A stretch of 64,000 nucleotides of DNA, taken from the sequence record MK234886; one strand, written 5' to 3'. The notes under the pieces were generated by a model that saw only the letters and a program-made list of their open reading frames with translations, did not search any database and was not told the DNA's origin. Positions 4,857 through 58,648 of this stretch are shown here, piece after piece. Both the position numbers and the translations under genes were made by a program. This DNA is from Escherichia phage AnYang. Within the stretch, counting starts at the first letter, position 1; each line of letters starts with the position of its first letter.

Positions 4857-6545
<1,689 letters not shown>

Positions 6546-28063: not shown

Positions 28064-28140
28064 ATCAATTTCCTCAGTAGATTAATGTTTTGTTATCCAG
28101 TCAACGAGAACCATTATAACATGATTCTCGAGGTTGTAAA

Positions 28141-28509
28141 CTATTTTTGTAGCTGTTCTAAAATAAATCCGCTCGTATAAAAGGTAGCATTATAAACCTT
28201 GTTCAGCGGGTTCAAAGCACGTCCATAGGTATCACATAATTCTTTGATAACATTTTCATAACTCACATAATAGCCGCTATGATAATACGGGTCCATACTC
28301 ATACGAAATTTAATGAACCGATAAAAGCCTGTTTCCGGGTCTTGAACGAAAACGAAATCAGCACTCATCATAATTTTTGAATCTACGCCAGGAATCATAC
28401 TTTGATTGAATGCCACCGATGCATCCTGAAGGCTGAGTTGTTTAAAGAACATTACCTTAGCATTACCAAAAAAGATTTTAGACATGATAATTTCCTTATT
28501 CAGCGTCAA
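28141..28509 (-). CDS. hypothetical protein
   Basis: 122-aa ORF (start may be the internal MSKIFFGN). Confidence 0.45.
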   Translation of the reverse strand: MTLNKEIIMSKIFFGNAKVMFFKQLSLQDASVAFNQSMIPGVDSKIMMSADFVFVQDPETGFYRFIKFRMSMDPYYHSGYYVSYENVIKELCDTYGRALNPLNKVYNATFYTSGFILEQLQK

Positions 28510-28750
28510 CAGAAATAGCCATCAGTTCATCAACAGTAAGACACTGTACACTAGGGCCTACGCAAAAACGCTTAGTTGAATCATAAAGGTCTGTAGCATT
28601 TACAGGCTGTAATTCACCACCAACTTGCAAAGGAGAAATGCGAATCAGTTGTTGACCATTATGTAATACAAAGCTCTCACCAACTGCAACATCTTTAAAA
28701 AGTTTCATAATATTTTCCTCAGAAGTTAAAGAATACACGTATATGGTCAA
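28496..28750 (-). CDS. hypothetical protein
   Basis: 84-aa ORF. Confidence 0.4.
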   Translation of the reverse strand: MTIYVYSLTSEENIMKLFKDVAVGESFVLHNGQQLIRISPLQVGGELQPVNATDLYDSTKRFCVGPSVQCLTVDELMAISVDAE

Positions 28751-28855
28751 TCATAAAAACGATTGGGAAAATGCTCAATACCATTAACAACACAAACATG
28801 TTCCAAATTGCTTTAAGTAAGTTTTTCATAATCATCTCCATTAGTTGATAGGTCT

Positions 28856-28884
28856 ATAGTATCATGATTAATGGAGATGTATAC
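28856..28884 (-). promoter_or_regulatory. T4-type early promoter (variant -35 GTATAC)
   Basis: GTATAC-N17-TACTATAGACCTATCAACTAA. Confidence 0.45.
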
Positions 28885-28974
28885 TGATTTATGCCAATTT
28901 CCACAACAATAAACTAAAACATACGCAAATCACTGGGATACAGGCCAACCAAATAAGGCACCACATTTTGCTAC

Positions 28975-29241
28975 TCAAAACACCACCTCTTTTATCTCAA
29001 TCAATCCCCTGTACAATGCAGTGCGGAGGTCATAAAGAATATCTATGCCATCAACATTATCCAGTTTTCCATCAATAAGCTTTTTTAAATCTTCCTTGGA
29101 TGCGATTAAGGGACGGAGAAATTTACAATCAGACAGAGATAACTCTGTAGTAACATCATCACCTTCGCCTGACGCGTCATACATAGCGGCAACAACCATA
29201 CCTGTAACTTTGTGTTTAGCGTAATATAATTTGATATCCAT
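28975..29241 (-). CDS. hypothetical protein
   Basis: Track ORF trimmed to internal start MDIKLYYAKHK; the 20-codon extension is read-through of the promoter/RBS motif. Confidence 0.5.
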   Translation of the reverse strand: MDIKLYYAKHKVTGMVVAAMYDASGEGDDVTTELSLSDCKFLRPLIASKEDLKKLIDGKLDNVDGIDILYDLRTALYRGLIEIKEVVF

Positions 29242-29269
29242 TTTGTTCTCCTCATTAGTTGATAGGAAG

Positions 29270-29299
29270 ATAGTAACACCATCCATGGCGTATGTAAAC
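29270..29299 (-). promoter_or_regulatory. T4-type early promoter
   Basis: GTTTAC-N18-TACTATCTTCCTATCAACTAATGAGGAG. Confidence 0.55.
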
Positions 29300-29311
29300 A
29301 CTTATTTTAAA

Positions 29312-29893
29312 TTATAAGGCGAGATACCAGCCGTTGTAATTGCTCTTACGGACTAGCTTTTTGATGGCTTCTCTGTCACCAGAGAACTTAGGAGTGAACA
29401 GGATGTCGCCTGCCTCATTTACTGAAGTGTCGAATATGATTATACAGTCTGCAACTTTATGATTCAAGAGCGGTCCCAGGTTAATCCCTGTTCCATAAGG
29501 GAAGTCACCAGAGTATCCTGTAGTGCAGGAAATCCACTTAGAATCTGATTGGTGAGTCTTGACCTCTACACGTAGTCCACAATACATAGGATGGGCTAAA
29601 ACATCCCATGCATAGGTATAAGGGTCGTCATGGTCTTCTAGACCACTGTTAACGTATCCTTTCAACCAATCGGCAACCATGTACTCGGCATACGTTGCAA
29701 TGACACACCGAGTCAATACTTCTTTCTTATCTTGGGACGGGTCTTGGCTTAAGGAATACAATACGGTATCCTTAATCTTAACCTTCATTTCGCCTGTTAA
29801 ATCAGATGTCTTCAGGGTAAATGTCGGCATCGCTGCCAATCGGAGTAGTCCCGGGTTCGTCTTCACCATAAATGCCTCGAATATGAAGTTCAC
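29312..29893 (-). CDS. hypothetical protein (denB position)
   Basis: 193-aa ORF between ndd and rIIB where T4 has denB; no motif recognised. Confidence 0.4.
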   Translation of the reverse strand: MNFIFEAFMVKTNPGLLRLAAMPTFTLKTSDLTGEMKVKIKDTVLYSLSQDPSQDKKEVLTRCVIATYAEYMVADWLKGYVNSGLEDHDDPYTYAWDVLAHPMYCGLRVEVKTHQSDSKWISCTTGYSGDFPYGTGINLGPLLNHKVADCIIIFDTSVNEAGDILFTPKFSGDREAIKKLVRKSNYNGWYLAL

Positions 29894-46031: not shown

Positions 46032-46039
46032 TATTTATA
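46032..46039 (-). promoter_or_regulatory. late promoter TATAAATA (soc)
   Basis: Minus-strand TATAAATA about 30 nt upstream of the soc ATG. Confidence 0.6.
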
Positions 46040-46730
46040 TATCTCTAAAAGAGTATATTAAATTTTTGAGAGCACTTGCGGTAACGTCATATTTACCTTT
46101 AAGTTCTTTGACTACAGGACCTGTAGTTGGTTTACCTAATGAAAGCCAAATATTATAGATTTCGCTTTTCAATGGTTCATGCCAATGAGGAGCAGTTCGT
46201 TGAGCTTTAGAAGTGGCTTCAGATATTAATTTATTCCCACCATTCTCATAAAACTCTTTCATTATTTCTGATTGACGAGCTTTACGTTCAGGCCTATTCT
46301 GAGCTATAGCTTGAGCCTTCCTCATTTTAATCTTAGTTTCAGGTTTATTTAATCTAAGCTTGTGCTCTATACACTGTTCTTCAGTCCATTTATGTCCTTC
46401 GCTGCCAGCGCCACCTGGTAATATATTCAAGCATTCGTTAGGATGCTTTTCTCTTATTTTGGCTATTAAAAGTCTTTCATGATTAAAAGATTCTTCTAAA
46501 TTTTGGTGGCCTACAAACCAACGTATTTTATATTTTAGACCATACTTTTTATACATATTCCATAAGATTTTGCCAGAACCTGGATATCTATCTTTATTTG
46601 GATTTAGTATAAAGGTTTCATGTTTACCACCATACCAAAAGACGCCTTTCGGCGTCCTAATTTTTATCAAATAAGTTCTATAAAACTTAGCCTTAATAGC
46701 CACGGTCCTGCCTTGCAAAGTTTTCAGCAT
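46035..46730 (-). CDS. putative GIY-YIG homing endonuclease, SegF-like by position
   Basis: 231 aa; N-terminal YLIKIRTPKGVFWYGGKHETF module; between 56 and soc where T4 has segF. Confidence 0.5.
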   Translation of the reverse strand: MLKTLQGRTVAIKAKFYRTYLIKIRTPKGVFWYGGKHETFILNPNKDRYPGSGKILWNMYKKYGLKYKIRWFVGHQNLEESFNHERLLIAKIREKHPNECLNILPGGAGSEGHKWTEEQCIEHKLRLNKPETKIKMRKAQAIAQNRPERKARQSEIMKEFYENGGNKLISEATSKAQRTAPHWHEPLKSEIYNIWLSLGKPTTGPVVKELKGKYDVTASALKNLIYSFRDI

Positions 46731-47211
46731 TCTTCAGATAATAAAGTTTAAACATTTCTTCAGCCGACATATTCAGGCCAATAGCCATATTGAATACGAA
46801 GTGCATAATATCAATGAGTTCAAATTTAATTTCAAGCTGGTCTTCAGGAGACATTTCTGAAATAGGTTTGGCTTGTGCTTCCGGGTAACGGGCTTTCCAT
46901 TTTTTCCATACAGCAGATGCATCTTTCTCACCTTTAGACATTTCACCGAGGGAAGTCAGAAGTTCACGGAATTCATCGTCAATACAATCTTTCTGTTCAC
47001 GCATCCAAGCAACAACATCACCGGCTGTCGCTAATTTGTCCGGATGGTAACAATATTCACGGTCATTAGCCAAACGGACCTGTAATGATTTCTGCATATC
47101 AAGCATAACCTGCAGAGGGTCTTTATCTTCGTGAATCAGAGCATTAAAATAAGCTTCCTCAGCTTTATCAACACCGTCAATCAGGTTTGCGCATTCGTTA
47201 AAGTATGCCAT
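46693..47211 (-). CDS. 56: dCTP pyrophosphatase gp56 (MazG-like)
   Basis: 172 aa; size and synteny as T4 gp56. Confidence 0.85.
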   Translation of the reverse strand: MAYFNECANLIDGVDKAEEAYFNALIHEDKDPLQVMLDMQKSLQVRLANDREYCYHPDKLATAGDVVAWMREQKDCIDDEFRELLTSLGEMSKGEKDASAVWKKWKARYPEAQAKPISEMSPEDQLEIKFELIDIMHFVFNMAIGLNMSAEEMFKLYYLKNAENFARQDRGY

Positions 47212-52347: not shown

Positions 52348-52661
52348 CTCTTAGATTTAATTTTATCCAGTTCTTCTTGTATTTGCATTGTAACACATTT
52401 TTCTACATGAAGCGCTAGCTCTTCTTTTCGGTCTTCGGAAGGTGTTCCGAAATCAACCGACACTTTTCCATCTTTCTCAATAACAATATTCATCACATAA
52501 ACGATGTGAGCAGTGCCATCCGGTAAAGTAAGCATAATTTCCTGCTTAACAGAACCCATTGACTTACGGATTATATCTAATGATTTCTCATAATAACGAG
52601 GGTCACTAGGACCCTCTTCGGCATCTTTAACAAAATTATCTAAATCAGATAAATCAGTCAT
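52332..52661 (-). CDS. hypothetical protein (gene 40 position)
   Basis: 109-aa ORF between uvsX and 41. Confidence 0.5.
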   Translation of the reverse strand: MTDLSDLDNFVKDAEEGPSDPRYYEKSLDIIRKSMGSVKQEIMLTLPDGTAHIVYVMNIVIEKDGKVSVDFGTPSEDRKEELALHVEKCVTMQIQEELDKIKSKRWWKW

Positions 52662-53835
52662 GGTCGCTCACAAAATTCATGTTTTCTAAATCGCTTTCGA
52701 TGTCAGCGGCGCTTTGGGTATTTCCACCTAATTTAACAGCAACGTTTTTAGAGACACGAGAGTTAATAAGGTCGTTCACTGCATCGTCAACTTCTTTAAT
52801 AGAATTAATTGCACCAAGCTTATACTTATTCTCGATTGCTTCACGGAACGGAGCGTGTTTAAACAGAGGTCCCCAGAACTCAACACAATCGGTAGCTTTA
52901 GCACGCCATGCTTTTTCTTCTTGAACCATTTCACCTGTGGTTTCGTCAAGGAATGCACGATTATACCAACCAGCTTTAGGTTTCACGACAAAGCCGATAT
53001 CGGTAGCCATTTCAAGCAGACCAGAGAACGGGTCGATACCACCTTCGAAGTTAACGGTGATAGGGAACGTTGATTTCTCTTTAACCGTACGAGATTTCTC
53101 TGCTTTCAGTGTGAAGTCATAACCAGTGAGCTCAGTACCATCTTTAACTTGGCGTTTAGAGATAAAGAACACGGTAGAAGCAGAGTACAGAATACCAGTA
53201 CCACCACCCATAATCTCTTTAGGATACATTCCACCAATTTCCATAGCCGTGTGGTTAATTGCTACGCAAGGGATATCCTTGATGGTCAGATAAGGTGTTA
53301 CGATACGGAACAGAGATTTCAGTGACTTAGCACGAGTCATATCACCTACAACTTTCTCGTTCAAAGCATCTTCGGTTTCTTTCTTAGAAGCAGTGTTACC
53401 AATGGAGTCGATAAAGATAATAACCTTTTCGCCACGAGTAATTTCTTCTAACTGGTTGGTCATATCAACTTTAAGCTGTTCGACTGACTGGATTGGTGTA
53501 TGAACCACACGTTCCAAATCAACACCCATCGAACGGAAATAAGATTCTGAAGCACCAAACTCAGAGTCATAGAACAAACAAATTGCGTCTGGATATTTCT
53601 TCATATATGCCGCAACCATGGTAAGTCCAAACAACGTTTTAAAGTGTTTAGATGGGGCAGCAAAGATTGTCAAACCTGATTGTAAGCCTGCATTCAATGC
53701 ACCGCCTAATGCAATATTCAGCATAGGGATACGAGTAGGAACTTCGTCACGACCATTAAACAATTTAGATTTGGTCAGGTCGGCAGTCATTTTAGAAGTA
53801 GAAGCTTTAATCAAACGGGATTTTAAATCGGACAT
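52654..53835 (-). CDS. uvsX: UvsX recombinase (RecA-like)
   Basis: 393 aa; near-collinear with T4 UvsX (MSDLKSRLIKASTSK..., FYDSEFG, GGGTG). Confidence 0.9.
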   Translation of the reverse strand: MSDLKSRLIKASTSKMTADLTKSKLFNGRDEVPTRIPMLNIALGGALNAGLQSGLTIFAAPSKHFKTLFGLTMVAAYMKKYPDAICLFYDSEFGASESYFRSMGVDLERVVHTPIQSVEQLKVDMTNQLEEITRGEKVIIFIDSIGNTASKKETEDALNEKVVGDMTRAKSLKSLFRIVTPYLTIKDIPCVAINHTAMEIGGMYPKEIMGGGTGILYSASTVFFISKRQVKDGTELTGYDFTLKAEKSRTVKEKSTFPITVNFEGGIDPFSGLLEMATDIGFVVKPKAGWYNRAFLDETTGEMVQEEKAWRAKATDCVEFWGPLFKHAPFREAIENKYKLGAINSIKEVDDAVNDLINSRVSKNVAVKLGGNTQSAADIESDLENMNFVSDHD

Positions 53836-53912: not shown

Positions 53913-54806
53913 TTAAAGGACCACGTCCTCATAACTTGGCATTTCGTGCTCAGAATGGATGTGGGCACCGAAATAAATGAATTCAGCCAGTCCAGGATGG
54001 AATACTAAACCAGGATTCTCATGATAAATGATATGAGGTCTTGATTTCAGAATCTGGTAATATTCAACCTTACTCGGTTTGAATTTAATAATCTCTACAT
54101 CAGGACGATAGTCTTCACGTTTAAATGAATCATTCGGATCGGTGATATAAAGACGAGCACCTTCAGCCGCAGCTTGGTCTACAACTCTTTCGAATTGATA
54201 ACACTTATCAGAGATACGGAACGGATGGAAAATACCATCAATTTTAATAGGCGCTAGACCTTCAGAGTAACGCTCAATTACTGCGGGATTAATTACCTTT
54301 TGGTCTACAAAAATCTTATCAGAGGACGCACCTCGTGACACCAGGACGTCTTTCTGACATTGATTCAGGACTGTAGTATAAATCGAACGTTCAACTGAAG
54401 ACACGTCGATATCAATGAACTCATCAATATAATAACGAGGAACTTCAGGGTCCATTGTAATGTTAAAGTTGAATTGTACAGTCTGAGTGCCATCATAACC
54501 TGTGATATCGGTTACTAATCCTGAGCAGTCATAGTATTCGATTAATGAATCAACGACGAACTCGTTTTCAGACCAAAAATGTTTACGGGTTTCATAAGCA
54601 TTTTCTTTATACCAAAGCGGCACAAAATTCAGTTCAGGAAACAATTCAATACATTCTTTGATATCGCTCGAATTTCTAGGATAAGCCAGATAATCACCTG
54701 GGCGAGCACGGTTTAAATGGAGTTGAAAATTGCCGTCCTTAAGGACGGCATATTCACCTGTTTCGTAACTACGCATACTGAAAATAGGAACGATAAATAG
54801 ACTCAT
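53913..54806 (-). CDS. hypothetical protein in the beta-gt slot (candidate DNA sugar transferase)
   Basis: 297-aa ORF, 4-nt overlap with the hydroxymethylase gene; no motif recognised; functional guess from position only. Confidence 0.6.
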   Translation of the reverse strand: MSLFIVPIFSMRSYETGEYAVLKDGNFQLHLNRARPGDYLAYPRNSSDIKECIELFPELNFVPLWYKENAYETRKHFWSENEFVVDSLIEYYDCSGLVTDITGYDGTQTVQFNFNITMDPEVPRYYIDEFIDIDVSSVERSIYTTVLNQCQKDVLVSRGASSDKIFVDQKVINPAVIERYSEGLAPIKIDGIFHPFRISDKCYQFERVVDQAAAEGARLYITDPNDSFKREDYRPDVEIIKFKPSKVEYYQILKSRPHIIYHENPGLVFHPGLAEFIYFGAHIHSEHEMPSYEDVVL

Positions 54807-55501
54807 TTCAGGAATCCTCGAACGTAGTCAAAATCACGTTCAAATACGTGTGCACTAACCATAGTATGGGAATATGTGCCCAGACCAACACCACATTGTT
54901 CAGCAATAAAGGCCATCAATTTACCCTGCAGATAGAAATCCAGCTGCATAACGATAGCACAGTTCTGTGAACGCATATGAGTGTGTGCATACAGACGTCC
55001 ATCACGAATATAATATGTTACCGAATCGGTACATGGATATTCTAAGGATTCGTCAGAATCAAGGAGGGCTTGGTCTTGTTCTTGGAGAATTTGGAACACA
55101 ACTCTTCGCGAGTTAGGCTTTTCTTTAAGCTCTTTAAGTAAGGCTGGGAGTTGGGCCACAATTCGAGGTCCATAGAAAGTGTTGAAGTTTGCAGGCAATA
55201 CGTCACTTTTCGGCTTATCAATGAACTTAGCAACATTAGGGTATTCCTTAAATGCTTCGGCGGCATCAGTACCACCAGAAATCATAAATTTCCAGAAAGA
55301 TTCGGCGTATTCATAACTAATACGATTGATACGCGGGTCGGTGAATTTATAGGTGCTTGCATCCAGTACTTCTACCGAAGCAGAACCAATTTCATAACAA
55401 CGGCCGATACGAGAATCAACTGCAAACTGTGGAGCTTCCAGGATTTCTTCGTTCATTTGTTTAAACGCGTTTTCAAAACTAACAGCGGTAATGTGTTTCA
55501 T
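54803..55501 (-). CDS. 42: divergent dCMP hydroxymethylase-like enzyme (thymidylate-synthase fold)
   Basis: 232 aa; KPNSRRVVF and EYPCTDSVTYYIRDGRLYAHTHMRSQN parallel T4 gp42 NPDSRRGIM and FMCTNTVQYLIRDKK...MRSND, but the rest differs. Confidence 0.65.
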   Translation of the reverse strand: MKHITAVSFENAFKQMNEEILEAPQFAVDSRIGRCYEIGSASVEVLDASTYKFTDPRINRISYEYAESFWKFMISGGTDAAEAFKEYPNVAKFIDKPKSDVLPANFNTFYGPRIVAQLPALLKELKEKPNSRRVVFQILQEQDQALLDSDESLEYPCTDSVTYYIRDGRLYAHTHMRSQNCAIVMQLDFYLQGKLMAFIAEQCGVGLGTYSHTMVSAHVFERDFDYVRGFLK

Positions 55502-56034
55502 TTATTCACCTTATTTTCAATATATTCATTCAGACGTTTTAATTCTACCATATCTACGTTAAGCAAGTTATTATGGCCGTCGTGATTTAAGATTTTAAAC
55601 ACGTTTTCAAAACATGTTTCATACTGCCGGATAGTTAGGTTGAACTCATCTTTGGTTAATTTAATAAGGTCATCTTCGAAGTCTTCATCTAATGGGTTAC
55701 GGGTTAAAATAACCTCAATAATATTGAATTCAGATTTAAACCCTTTCCAATCTTCCAGTTCTACATAAGGGTCCATTTCACCACGAAGGAATCCCGAGTA
55801 AACAATATTACTAGGATATCCACGGTCTAAGATGTAGACAAAATTAGGGTCTAAAAACTTATATAAGGTTTCGACTAAAGCCTTATCATTATCAGTCCCT
55901 ATTGAAATGCACTTACCATTAATCTTTTTAGGAAAATCAATAAGACGATATTTCTTATCAGATAAAAGCGATTCAATTAAAGTAGACTTCCCGGAATTAT
56001 CCGGGCCGTCGATAACAATGATTTTTGGTTTCAC
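55498..56034 (-). CDS. P-loop nucleotide kinase-like protein
   Basis: 178 aa; Walker A IVIDGPDNSGKSTL; dNMP/thymidylate-kinase-like. Confidence 0.6.
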   Translation of the reverse strand: MKPKIIVIDGPDNSGKSTLIESLLSDKKYRLIDFPKKINGKCISIGTDNDKALVETLYKFLDPNFVYILDRGYPSNIVYSGFLRGEMDPYVELEDWKGFKSEFNIIEVILTRNPLDEDFEDDLIKLTKDEFNLTIRQYETCFENVFKILNHDGHNNLLNVDMVELKRLNEYIENKVNK

Positions 56035-56429
56035 GGATGATATGCCTTATAGGTTTCAAGAGTTCCTTCACGAACCATTTCTTTAAAGTGGTCAGGACGG
56101 ATTGCTCGGTCATCGATGATAAAAGTATAACTCGGCTTATGTGTAAGCAGATTATGATATTTCAATCCAATCTTTTCAAGGTTCTTAACCAATGCAGGAA
56201 CTACTTCAACCAAGATTCGACCGGGGCCACATGAAGTCATACCACGAGCGGTGAACAATGTAATCTCGTACCCTTCATCATAAAGCTTATTAATCATGGA
56301 CACCATTTCGGTGTCCGGTTTAAAGTTTTCGTAATCACGGTCATGGTTCCAAACCGTGATTGTATTATCGATGTCAAAACATAAATGGGGCTTATTTTCT
56401 ACTCGATGTGACATTAAATTTTCTTCCAT
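56031..56429 (-). CDS. HAD-superfamily phosphatase
   Basis: 132 aa; motif I CFDIDNTIT (DxDxT), later K and IIDD elements. Confidence 0.6.
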   Translation of the reverse strand: MEENLMSHRVENKPHLCFDIDNTITVWNHDRDYENFKPDTEMVSMINKLYDEGYEITLFTARGMTSCGPGRILVEVVPALVKNLEKIGLKYHNLLTHKPSYTFIIDDRAIRPDHFKEMVREGTLETYKAYHP

Positions 56430-58087
56430 TGTTTGTGGAGTTCAGTAGAACCTGTAGGTTTATATTTTACACCAGTTTCTTGGTCAAGCAAAACCCACTT
56501 ATCAGGACAACGAGTGATAATTTGGGCCGTGATAGGGTCACGAACTTCATCGACAAATTCACCTGTGATAAGCTTACGCTTACGAGGATGCCGCTTCAGC
56601 AGCACACTCAGTTGGTACAAACCGTTGTAATAAGCACCTAGAGCTTTCAGAGGGTTATTTTTAAAGTAACCTGCCAGTGCCATCCAGATAACAGCAATCC
56701 AGAGCTTGTGCTTAAATGTACACATCGGAATATCGTCTAAAGGCATAACCTTTTCAATATCAACGAATACACGAGTTCCGTTACGAGTTAAGCCGCCCCA
56801 TAGAGGGTCAGAGTTAAATTTGTCATAACCATCGATAGAATAAAGCACCTTAGCTTCATCATAAATTGCAGGGCCTTTAGAACTATTACCAAAATAACCA
56901 CGTGGGTCGATGATTTTAATATCACCTTCATCCGACAACATAATATTACTGTAGTGCGGGTCACCATGAATAAGTTGGTACGGTTCTTTATGTTCAGACA
57001 GAATTTCTAAGGCGTGACGAAGAAGTTTTTCTGGGTCGCCTACCTTGAAGTCGTTAACATGGGTAATGCCCTGTGGAGCAAAGCCTTCAATCAATCCAGC
57101 AATAGAAGCATTACGAATCAGGACCTTGTCCAATACTTCTTTCTTAACATCGGAATACCATTGCTCATCGGATGGATTATCGATAGTCCCACCGAATGAA
57201 CGCAATGCACTAATGACCTTATAAACCATGAGGACTTTAGTTTCTTTAGACATAAACCGATAGGCATCTGCCATAGTACGACCAAAGATACGTTCCATTT
57301 TAATGAATTCACCTGGAGCAAAGTCTACAATGCTCGGAACGAATTCAGAATCAATAGAATTGTACCAATTGATTTCTTTAGATTGGATTTCTTTACCTAA
57401 TTCGTTAGTAGGTACTTTAATAGCCAGATTCTCAGTGAACTCTAATTTATTAAATTCACGGTTAATTTCAGAATCTTCATGGGCCTTAGCCAGTTTCAGT
57501 TTGTCACCGACATCAACTACAAAGTCCAGCTTACGTTCGGTCAAATGGACCATTGAATCTAGATTGTCAGCAAGGTCTTCGCCGTAATTAGAACCGTTAA
57601 AACCTGTCCAATTGGCTACTTGATACAAACCAACTACACCGCCACCGGTACCAATTTCACGCAGGTACGGTTCTTCAAATGTAAAACGACAGTCGGTCCC
57701 GTAGGTATAACAGTAGTCGTTATCCCACTCAACTTTATGACCCTCAGGAATGATGTCACACCAGTTAAACAGGACATTGTGCCCGATGATATCTTCGGCA
57801 ATGCAATCAATAGCATGAGCTGAACCATTAGCCACATCTACGTTACGAATAGTGAATTTAGGCTTATCACTATTAATCATGTTAATGGATTTAATATAGC
57901 CTTTAACGAGGTCGTTAAATTTGCTGTGAATAACCAGAATAATTTCATCTGATTGGTTACTATACAAATCATACAAATGTTTTAGTACTGTATGTTGTTT
58001 GTAGTTAACCAATACCTTCGGGATTTCGTTAGTAATTGGATACAACCGTGAGCCAAGACCTGCGCCTAAAATAACAACCTTTTTCAT
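56414..58087 (-). CDS. bifunctional sugar-1-phosphate nucleotidyltransferase / APH-like kinase
   Basis: Start at MKKVVILGAGLGSRL (GAGGAA RBS; track start 58117 has none); N-terminal NTP-transferase glycine loop; C-terminal kinase motifs LIHGDPHYSNIML and DIKIIDPRG. Confidence 0.7.
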   Translation of the reverse strand: MKKVVILGAGLGSRLYPITNEIPKVLVNYKQHTVLKHLYDLYSNQSDEIILVIHSKFNDLVKGYIKSINMINSDKPKFTIRNVDVANGSAHAIDCIAEDIIGHNVLFNWCDIIPEGHKVEWDNDYCYTYGTDCRFTFEEPYLREIGTGGGVVGLYQVANWTGFNGSNYGEDLADNLDSMVHLTERKLDFVVDVGDKLKLAKAHEDSEINREFNKLEFTENLAIKVPTNELGKEIQSKEINWYNSIDSEFVPSIVDFAPGEFIKMERIFGRTMADAYRFMSKETKVLMVYKVISALRSFGGTIDNPSDEQWYSDVKKEVLDKVLIRNASIAGLIEGFAPQGITHVNDFKVGDPEKLLRHALEILSEHKEPYQLIHGDPHYSNIMLSDEGDIKIIDPRGYFGNSSKGPAIYDEAKVLYSIDGYDKFNSDPLWGGLTRNGTRVFVDIEKVMPLDDIPMCTFKHKLWIAVIWMALAGYFKNNPLKALGAYYNGLYQLSVLLKRHPRKRKLITGEFVDEVRDPITAQIITRCPDKWVLLDQETGVKYKPTGSTELHKQWKKI

Positions 58088-58147
58088 TATCTGTTCCTCA
58101 AGTGAATGTAGGTACATTATACACTATTTTTAATAAATTGATACTGC

Positions 58148-58648
58148 TTAAATCTTATCTTTACCGATTTCGATGCACTGTTCTATTGCTGCCGGCACTT
58201 TGGTCTTGAGCTTATTGATTTGTTTCTTATAATCACGGGCCTTATCAAAGCTCTCGGTTTCGAGCATTTCGTAATAACGAGCCTCGTGGATGGAAATCTG
58301 TAGATTGATATGATTTACGCACATCGCATACAGTTTCTGTTTTTTGTACAAATCGTCTTGACGCTTCATTTCTGCCTGGTGTTTGGCTAGTACCGCTTCA
58401 CGCTTAGACTCTTGTTCACGTTGGAATTCGATTTCATGTTGAGCATATTTTGCACAGTTATTACCACATTGATTATTAGCTCGGGTATACACAAGTCCAG
58501 AACCTGCACGGAATTTCATTTCGCCATCGAATTGTTTCTGTTCAGCTGCGATACGAGCTTTACCAACTTCATCAGCCGAAACTGCATCACCATATTGGAC
58601 CGCGCAACCTGATAGGAGCATACTCATTGCGATAATTAACTTTTTCAT
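58148..58648 (-). CDS. putative lipoprotein
   Basis: 166 aa; signal peptide plus lipobox (AMSMLLSGCAV); coiled-coil-like, Cys-containing mature part. Confidence 0.6.
   Translation of the reverse strand: MKKLIIAMSMLLSGCAVQYGDAVSADEVGKARIAAEQKQFDGEMKFRAGSGLVYTRANNQCGNNCAKYAQHEIEFQREQESKREAVLAKHQAEMKRQDDLYKKQKLYAMCVNHINLQISIHEARYYEMLETESFDKARDYKKQINKLKTKVPAAIEQCIEIGKDKI

Follow-up and report, generated by a model that had tools for sequence, protein, structure and literature searches.

A compact GT-B-fold protein in the beta-glucosyltransferase slot of Escherichia phage AnYang is a candidate first arabinosyltransferase of the arabinosyl-5-hydroxycytosine pathway

Escherichia phage AnYang (sequence record MK234886) carries, in the 64,000-nucleotide (nt) stretch that we analysed and refer to here as the window, an ATG-started open reading frame (ORF) of 297 codons at 53913..54806 on the minus strand. 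The ORF lies between uvsX and a gene of the thymidylate synthase (ThyA) family, the slot that holds the beta-glucosyltransferase gene b-gt in phage T4 (uvsX - segA - b-gt - 42), as a preliminary description of this DNA had correctly pointed out. That description regarded the 297-amino-acid (aa) product as an orphan, which could be either a novel DNA sugar transferase acting on hydroxymethylcytosine (hmC) or an unrelated insertion. We consider it likely that the protein is a compact GT-B glycosyltransferase (GT), and that it is the first, nucleobase-proximal arabinosyltransferase of the pathway leading to arabinosyl-5-hydroxycytosine. This reading is based on the fold of the protein, its orthology, the synteny of its gene, and the phyletic pattern of its family. 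The region is 96-97% identical in DNA sequence to that of Dhakavirus-type T-even phages (IME08, MX01, Bp7, WG01, and QL01) and includes the following genes and features, where dCMP stands for deoxycytidine monophosphate.

52654..53835, downstream of the 297-aa ORF: uvsX (Pfam T4_UVSX_C, E 4e-36)
53913..54806, minus strand: 297-aa GT-B-fold protein, candidate first (nucleobase-proximal) arabinosyltransferase with 5-hydroxycytosine as its predicted acceptor
54803..54819, minus strand: coupling junction, with a GAGGA Shine-Dalgarno sequence at 54819-54815, the ATG at 54806-54804, and the upstream TGA at 54805-54803
54803..55501, minus strand: 232-aa thymidylate-synthase homolog, 5-hydroxy-dCMP synthase (79.7% identity to RB69 gp48, 71% to DLP3 gp80)
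55498..56034, minus strand: 178-aa thymidylate-kinase (TMK)-like P-loop kinase (PHROG 761; 37% to RB69 gp45, 39% to DLP3 gp78)
56031..56429, minus strand: 132-aa HAD-type phosphatase, AfhF ortholog (63% to RB69 gp51 and DLP3 gp81; PHROG 1238)
56414..58117, minus strand: 567-aa NTP_transferase-APH fusion, AfhE ortholog (Pfam NTP_transferase at residues 13-110, APH at 356-427)

The 297-aa ORF is the last of five genes with mutual overlaps of 4 to 16 nt, and three of the four co-overlapping genes are orthologous to enzymes with a demonstrated function in the pathway. Its junction with the upstream gene reads GAGGATTCCTGAAATGAGT, in which the ATG shares the tetranucleotide ATGA with the TGA of the 232-aa ORF; the coupling of start and stop noted previously is thus present, with the GAGGA Shine-Dalgarno sequence 8 nt ahead of the ATG. 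Junctions between the GT and hydroxylase genes of other phages are similarly tight, with one shared nucleotide in both RB69 and Shewanella phage Thanatos and a 3-nt gap in Acinetobacter phage DLP3. On its other side, the 297-aa ORF is separated from uvsX by a 77-nt spacer.

The upstream neighbour had been taken for the hydroxymethylase encoded by gene 42, an identity that we reject. The 232-aa protein is 25% identical to T4 gp42, as opposed to 79.7% for RB69 gp48, and it carries Asn (in MRSQNC) at the position of Escherichia coli ThyA D169, where T4 gp42 has Asp, together with Asp at the N177 position. It also matches PDB entries 9iqu and 9iqc (E 2e-126), which we take to be the enzyme of phage HY126 described by He et al. 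(cited in PMC13326640). RB69 gp48 and DLP3 gp80 have been shown experimentally to convert dCMP to 5-hydroxy-dCMP with flavin and O2, and D169N was proposed as the diagnostic residue of 5-hydroxy-dCMP synthases (Lee et al., NAR 2026, PMC13326640). Apart from the 232-aa protein, searches with RB69 gp48 and DLP3 gp80, in which T4 gp42 was not used as a query, gave a single, distant ThyA-family match in the window (5031-5360). Because the upstream partner is a 5-hydroxy-dCMP synthase bearing D169N, the expected acceptor of the GT is 5-hydroxycytosine (5hoC) and not hmC, contrary to what had been proposed.

The genes for AfhF-like and AfhE-like proteins lie within the same block, which leads us to expect uridine diphosphate (UDP)-arabinofuranose (UDP-Araf) as the sugar donor. 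The 567-aa protein is 44% identical to DLP3 gp82 over 541 residues and is an ortholog of RB69 gp52:53. According to the work of He et al. (2026) summarised in PMC13326640, AfhF of phage HY126 converts arabinose-1,5-bisphosphate to arabinose-1-phosphate, AfhE and AfhF together build UDP-Araf from arabinose-5-phosphate, and a UDP-arabinose pyrophosphorylase activity has been reported for AfhE. Taken as a whole, the literature has demonstrated hydroxylase activity, UDP-arabinose synthesis, and the modification chemistry for orthologs of the neighbouring proteins.

Contrary to its description as an orphan, the 297-aa protein belongs to a widespread family of phage proteins. It is 97.6% identical to EpJS10_0038 of Dhakavirus JS10 and falls in an unnamed family, PHROG 3891 (E 1.7e-158). 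Homologs were found by tblastn in 351 phage records, nearly all of which (347/351) cover at least 80% of the query, a large protein collection yielded 117 clusters at 90% identity, and a family profile run against 1.84 billion representatives returned 238 matches. By organism name, the records are distributed among phages of Escherichia (175), Acinetobacter (57), Klebsiella (26), Shigella (15), Serratia (14), Enterobacter (9), Proteus (7), and Yersinia (6). Conservation reaches down to ~26% identity over hundreds of phages, and an alignment of 48 diverse relatives contains 18 invariant residues, clustered in P195-F-R-x-S-D200, T222-D-P-N225, K246, and H270-P-G. Dhakavirus genome records list the product as a 'hypothetical protein', and some of them name it 'RNA polymerase binding protein'.

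We also identified an unusual copy of the gene in the Dhakavirus Escherichia phage vB_EcoM_005 (MK295203.1; L012 1501-2295), where an in-frame deletion of 33 codons (~residues 215-247) takes out the invariant T222-D223-P224-N225 and K246. The genome is ~15 kb shorter than those of related phages, and the deletion could reflect misassembly as well as a natural knock-out. The copy is labelled 'RNA polymerase binding protein', a product name that recurs under the matched region in other records.

The family has already been described, in 2025-2026, as a putative first arabinosyltransferase, such that of the earlier suggestion of a novel DNA sugar transferase, fold and orthology uphold the sugar transferase but not the novelty. 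Specifically, structure and synteny led to the designation of RB69 gp46:47 and DLP3 gp79 as 'arabinosyltransferase 1', and Dhakaviruses were named as carriers of the pathway by comparative genomics only (PMC13326640). By tblastn, RB69 gp47 (68.7% identity) and gp46 (64.0%) jointly cover nearly the whole 297-aa ORF, and DLP3 gp79 is 49.5% identical over 305 residues (the match sits on ADLP3_079). TH1_063 of Thanatos is 51% identical (E 2e-97), and like the RB69 and DLP3 proteins it is a full-length ortholog. RB69 gp46 and gp47 (ORF046c/047c) are described as one gene that was split by a sequencing error (PMC13326640). In the RB69 reference both the GT gene (ORF046c/047c, L002 24597-25497) and the AfhE-like gene (ORF052c/053c, 28094-29780) appear split, the latter likewise ascribed to sequencing error (PMC13326640), while both are intact in the window.

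Like the window ORF, RB69 gp46:47, DLP3 gp79, and TH1_063 all lie beside a D169N ThyA homolog. The local gene order differs, however, in that the kinase gene of the window is found on the opposite side of the hydroxylase gene: the order is uvsX - GT - hydroxylase - kinase in the window (53913-56034) and JS10, whereas it is hydroxylase - GT - kinase in RB69 (L002 24047-26213), DLP3 (L001 4290-6475), Thanatos (L004 29750-31919), and jumbo-phage contigs. The kinase gene has moved across the hydroxylase gene with its 4-nt overlaps kept.

This association of genes extends to distant relatives. On two jumbo-phage contigs of 355-383 kb, homologs with 38-42% identity are accompanied by a ThyA-like gene and an overlapping TMK-like kinase gene, and in one of the two contigs SIS-isomerase and APH-kinase genes are also found near the GT. 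In a phage with a DnaE-type polymerase (contig L010), a 30%-identical relative stands in a row of kinase-like, GT, U32-like, and GT47-like genes. The TMK-like gene adjoins or overlaps the GT gene in L009 (9025-9576), L010 (7496-8026), and L011 (9125-9682). Flavodoxin_2-family genes, whose products resemble NAD(P)H-dependent flavin reductases, occur in both jumbo-phage contigs a few genes away from the ThyA-like gene (L009 6426-6932 and L011 1-523) and could possibly encode a reductase dedicated to the flavin-dependent cytosine hydroxylase.

An AlphaFold2 model built from the 48-relative alignment has a mean predicted local distance difference test score (pLDDT) of 95.0 and a predicted template modelling score (pTM) of 0.90. 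It comprises two Rossmann-like beta/alpha/beta domains that face each other across a central cleft, which is the GT-B architecture; the fold comparison suggested in the preliminary description thus led to a glycosyltransferase fold and not to an unrelated one. Structural comparison scored the model highest against sucrose-phosphate synthase 6kih (17.8, with 269 residues aligned), followed by BshA (16.8), HepE (16.3), the PglA-type 8dqd (16.2), PimA (16.0), WaaG (15.3), the glycosyltransferase 9iqz of phage HY126 (14.1), and T4 alpha-glucosyltransferase 1y6f (13.4). Foldseek TM-scores of 0.61 for MshA, 0.58 for BshA, and 0.44-0.54 for UDP-GlcNAc 2-epimerases support membership of the same superfamily. 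As modelled, the 297-aa protein would be a compact enzyme of the GT-B type, with 60-100 fewer residues than its structural neighbours. The C-terminal half holds the invariant R197, D200, D223, K246, and H270 as well as the nearly invariant P271-G272, and we suggest that the conserved residues of this half (R197, D200, D223, K246, and H270) may contact the donor.

While the fold is that of a glycosyltransferase, the sequence has diverged past the reach of every family model tried, in agreement with the earlier remark that no glycosyltransferase motif is recognisable. Pfam gave zero matches to the 297-aa protein at E<=0.1, and phmmer and family-profile searches of PDB sequences gave only chance-level matches to C-type lectin and Tdp1 (E 0.36-2). 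The sole sequence hint of a GT4 relationship is a Glyco_transf_4 match below the cut-off (E 2e-4) in P0250, a distant fused protein. Bacterial retaining GT4-type enzymes (6kih, BshA 6n1x, PimA 2gej, MshA 3c4q, and WaaG 8b5s) are ~60-100 residues longer, their Pfam models Glycos_transf_1 and Glyco_transf_4 match none of the 48 family members, and the motifs PFRISD, TDPN, and HPG are special to the phage family.

T4 beta-GT also has a broad GT-B architecture and occupies the same slot between uvsX and a ThyA-family gene, and the two enzymes would share a purpose, namely to protect DNA from host nucleases by placing a sugar on modified cytosine. They differ in that T4 beta-GT joins hydroxymethylcytosine and UDP-glucose, whereas the window GT would use 5-hydroxycytosine and UDP-arabinofuranose, and in that the former is basic (isoelectric point, pI, 9.05) and the latter acidic (pI 4.88). 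There is no sequence similarity between them: BLASTP of the 297-aa protein against T4 beta-GT gave at best E 0.6 over 20 residues, and tblastn of b-gt against JS10 gave nothing at E<=1. Homology to T4 b-gt is not detectable, and we reject it.

We compared all pathway proteins of RB69 and DLP3 with the window, and the transferases, isomerases, and U32-like proteins also with the complete JS10 genome. RB69 gp3, HY126 9iqz, Aat of Bas46, and DLP3 gp76 and gp77 represent the second and third arabinosyltransferases, which are ~70 residues longer than the window GT and act on DNA that is already arabinosylated (PMC13326640). Aat, which we infer to be a gp3-like enzyme, is dispensable in Bas46, as judged by deletion. 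By tblastn, RB69 gp3, DLP3 gp76, and DLP3 gp77 had no match in the window or JS10, the 297-aa ORF included, and the a-gt slot of JS10 contains only the small ORFs a-gt.2 to a-gt.5. The only glycosyltransferase homolog detected in the complete JS10 genome is the ortholog of the 297-aa ORF; if JS10 DNA is arabinosylated, this protein must therefore do it.

The phage of the window differs from RB69 not only in the second transferase but also in the isomerase and the U32-like gene, as neither an arabinose-5-phosphate isomerase homolog nor a peptidase-U32-like gene was found in the window or JS10. Elsewhere, RB69 has both (gp55 and gp50, respectively), DLP3 has the isomerase (gp83), and U32-like genes are found in Thanatos (TH1_065) and contig L010. 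Given that Dhakaviruses do without it, the U32-like protein is not a core requirement of the pathway.

The distribution of the two kinds of transferase is consistent with an early role for the window family. Gp3/Aat-like transferases occur in 212 records as compared to 351 for the window GT family; the ones listed comprise Mosigvirus-type coliphages, each matched at a single place, and Acinetobacter phages, each matched at two, and none of the 212 records is named for Serratia, Klebsiella, Yersinia, Enterobacter, or Proteus. Serratia/Prodigiosinella phage LC53 has been reported to carry one arabinose and Bas46 two. According to PMC13326640, RB69 has mono- and di-arabinosylated cytidines and DLP3 has three arabinoses. 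RB69 encodes a member of the window GT family plus gp3, and DLP3 a member plus gp76 and gp77; across these phages, sugars and transferase genes increase together in number. The window GT family is universal among the arabinosylating phages in the collection, which fits the expectation for a first transferase. No second transferase was found, and we therefore predict that the DNA of the window's Dhakavirus is mono-arabinosylated, its cytosine being mono-arabinosyl-5-hydroxycytosine. A transposon-mutagenesis preprint on LC53 and Bas46, presented as a proof of principle, contains no gene-level data on the GT family.

One further gene of the window, outside the five-gene block, bears on the proposed pathway.

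46693..47211, minus strand: dCTPase, gene 56 (78% to RB69 gp28 over 173 residues; weak Pfam dUTPase_2)

The gp56 dCTPase removes dCTP, such that only modified cytosine enters the DNA, and it would supply dCMP. We hypothesize that the 232-aa ThyA homolog would hydroxylate this dCMP to 5-hydroxy-dCMP, that kinases would lift the product to the triphosphate, and that the polymerase would place 5-hydroxycytosine in phage DNA. Meanwhile, UDP-Araf would be made from arabinose-5-phosphate through the joint action of the AfhE-like kinase/uridylyltransferase and the AfhF-like phosphatase. Since the phage has no isomerase of its own, arabinose-5-phosphate would have to come from the host, where KdsD and GutQ, which produce it in E. 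coli metabolism, would provide it. The 297-aa enzyme would then bind UDP-Araf in its C-terminal Rossmann domain and transfer arabinose to the C5 hydroxyl of 5-hydroxycytosine, and the resulting ether-linked arabinosyl-cytosine would block restriction enzymes and CRISPR nucleases. Transfer by the 297-aa protein itself, the identity of its donor, and the level of its acceptor, DNA or nucleotide, are what we infer within this scheme.

Several observations weigh against the protein being the first arabinosyltransferase. In terms of biochemistry, the purified GTs of DLP3, gp79 included, did not singly arabinosylate 5hoC-DNA with either UDP-Araf or UDP-arabinopyranose (UDP-Arap) (data not shown in PMC13326640), and Brandt et al. 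(PMC12838424), who call TH1_063 of Thanatos a pyrophosphorylase, reported that it makes UDP-xylose when given UTP and xylose-1-phosphate. Moreover, arabinosylation of Dhakavirus DNA is itself putative, as we found no chemical analysis of a Dhakavirus. In terms of sequence, Pfam searches of the 48 aligned members gave no glycosyltransferase match at E<=1, and the E-x7-E donor motif of GT4 enzymes could not be placed with confidence on H270-P-G-x-x-E275. Foldseek ranked UDP-GlcNAc 2-epimerases first (E ~2e-6). Finally, the protein has a pI of 4.88 and a net charge of -17.7, and the family median pI is 5.2, compared to 9.05 for T4 beta-GT and to 7.2 and 5.7 for the DNA-acting DLP3 gp76 and gp77, respectively; such strong acidity is unusual for an enzyme that acts on DNA.

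Some of these points might be explained if arabinose were transferred from UDP-Araf to free 5-hydroxy-dCMP before replication, the TMK-like kinase phosphorylated the bulky product, and the polymerase incorporated a pre-glycosylated triphosphate, a possibility that we take seriously but consider rather unlikely. The purified enzyme would then be inert on 5hoC-DNA because its acceptor is the free nucleotide, as seen for DLP3 gp79 alone, and its acidity (charge ~-18) relative to T4 beta-GT would be less surprising, although net charge is weak evidence. Moreover, the TMK-like kinase would otherwise be left without a task: a T4-type deoxynucleoside monophosphate (dNMP) kinase phosphorylates 5-hydroxy-dCMP and, together with the synthase, suffices for 5hoC in E. 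coli DNA (PMC13326640), and the TMK-like protein consequently has no assigned step. Yet its gene adjoins or overlaps that of the GT throughout the lineages we looked at, and at least six representative clusters contain a fusion of the two.

These fusions were identified with Pfam and with a TMK profile built from the window kinase and six syntenic relatives. P0204 joins the GT to a C-terminal Pfam Thymidylate_kin domain at residues 372-519, and P0223, P0246, P0228, P0240, and P0197 have a C-terminal TMK-like domain by the profile (E 5e-8 to 2e-5). By BLASTP, neither the kinase nor the phosphatase of the window could be connected with the additional domains of the long fused proteins. Four metagenomic proteins (P0131, P0145, P0195, and P0213) carry an N-terminal HAD-type domain before the GT, although these HAD domains were identified only by a DxDG motif and one weak Pfam match, with nothing matched by a HAD profile, and the metagenomic P0250 has a C-terminal SIS isomerase domain. 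The GT is thus also fused to HAD and SIS domains, so the kinase fusions may merely reflect the adjacency of the genes.

To our knowledge, all characterised phage DNA glycosylations are post-replicative, which argues against transfer to the nucleotide. In addition, the later arabinose additions have been shown to occur on DNA, and pre-glycosylation would be needless given that 5-hydroxy-dCTP is a competent polymerase substrate (PMC13326640). The negative assay of gp79 could stem from a missing partner or from poor protein, and the GT may depend on the TMK-like protein as a partner in order to act on DNA. The authors of that assay could not tell whether the first arabinosylation takes place on the mononucleotide or after replication (PMC13326640). 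Should it take place on the nucleotide, phage DNA would have its first case of a sugar hypermodification made before replication.

It is improbable that the 297-aa protein is instead a UDP-pentose pyrophosphorylase that supplies the donor. This role is suggested by the Thanatos ortholog TH1_063, full-length and 51% identical to the window protein: the purified enzyme, supplied in vitro with UTP and xylose-1-phosphate, yielded a compound that matched UDP-xylose in mass and in its tandem mass spectrometry (MS/MS) pattern (PMC12838424). Conversely, the predicted fold is GT-B and not the GT-A-like fold of nucleotidyltransferases, no NTP_transferase match was found by Pfam, and a canonical NTP_transferase domain is already available to the cluster in the 567-aa AfhE-like protein. 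A pyrophosphorylase in this position would also leave JS10 without any transferase. The sugar used in the assay was non-cognate, and His-tag preparations from E. coli can, we suspect, carry host uridylyltransferases. We consider pyrophosphorylase activity unlikely to be the physiological role.

The Foldseek ranking might alternatively point to a GT-B-fold nucleotide-sugar epimerase or isomerase, similar to UDP-GlcNAc 2-epimerase, that remodels a UDP-sugar (e.g. the form of its arabinose), which we judge to be very improbable. TM-scores are higher for MshA and BshA than for the epimerases, no Pfam Epimerase_2 signal was detected in the 48 members, and mono-arabinosylating phages would be left without a transferase. 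Lastly, the chance that the ORF is an unrelated insertion or non-functional filler is close to nil, despite its lack of a sequence family annotation and the variability of the uvsX-gene 42 slot in T4-like phages (T4 itself has the homing endonuclease segA there): conservation down to ~26% identity with 18 invariant residues, a confidently predicted globular enzyme fold, translational coupling inside a five-gene pathway block, and hydroxylase and kinase synteny shared from T4-like coliphages to 355-383 kb jumbo-phage contigs already refute it.

In addition to the pathway genes, we identified two neighbouring ORFs. A conserved 166-aa ORF at 58148-58648 on the minus strand, immediately upstream of the AfhE-like gene and before the DNA polymerase gene, belongs to PHROG 1754, has a counterpart in JS10 (EpJS10_0043), and gave no Pfam match. 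A 231-aa homing-endonuclease-like ORF at 46035-46730 on the minus strand (PHROG 314, E 9e-20) extends into the 3' end of gene 56; JS10 has small soc ORFs downstream of gene 56, so the 231-aa ORF looks like an insertion particular to the phage of the window. Scans for regulatory signals found 18 promoter-like sites against 16.8 expected from shuffled sequence and 3 terminator-like sites against 3.5 expected; as these counts are at the shuffled level, we draw no conclusion about transcription units from them.

A first arabinosyltransferase thus remains our preferred interpretation of the 297-aa protein, and its family, with whose proposed role one published assay is at odds, stands for the step that is understood least well in a pathway of recent discovery. 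The family remains of interest for its putative transferase activity, for the pyrophosphorylase report that conflicts with it, and for its constant association with a kinase that has no assigned step. Dhakaviruses would offer the simplest system for settling the role of the GT, because it is their only transferase. The present analysis corrects the annotation of a gene labelled hypothetical or 'RNA polymerase binding protein' and of a neighbour labelled thymidylate synthase or dCMP hydroxymethylase. More generally, the pair of GT and hydroxylase genes marks phages whose DNA probably contains arabinosyl-5-hydroxycytosine rather than glucosyl-hmC. In the case of JS10, Bp7, and similar coliphages, this has a bearing on the restriction enzymes, CRISPR nucleases, type IV systems, and sequencing chemistries that can be expected to work.

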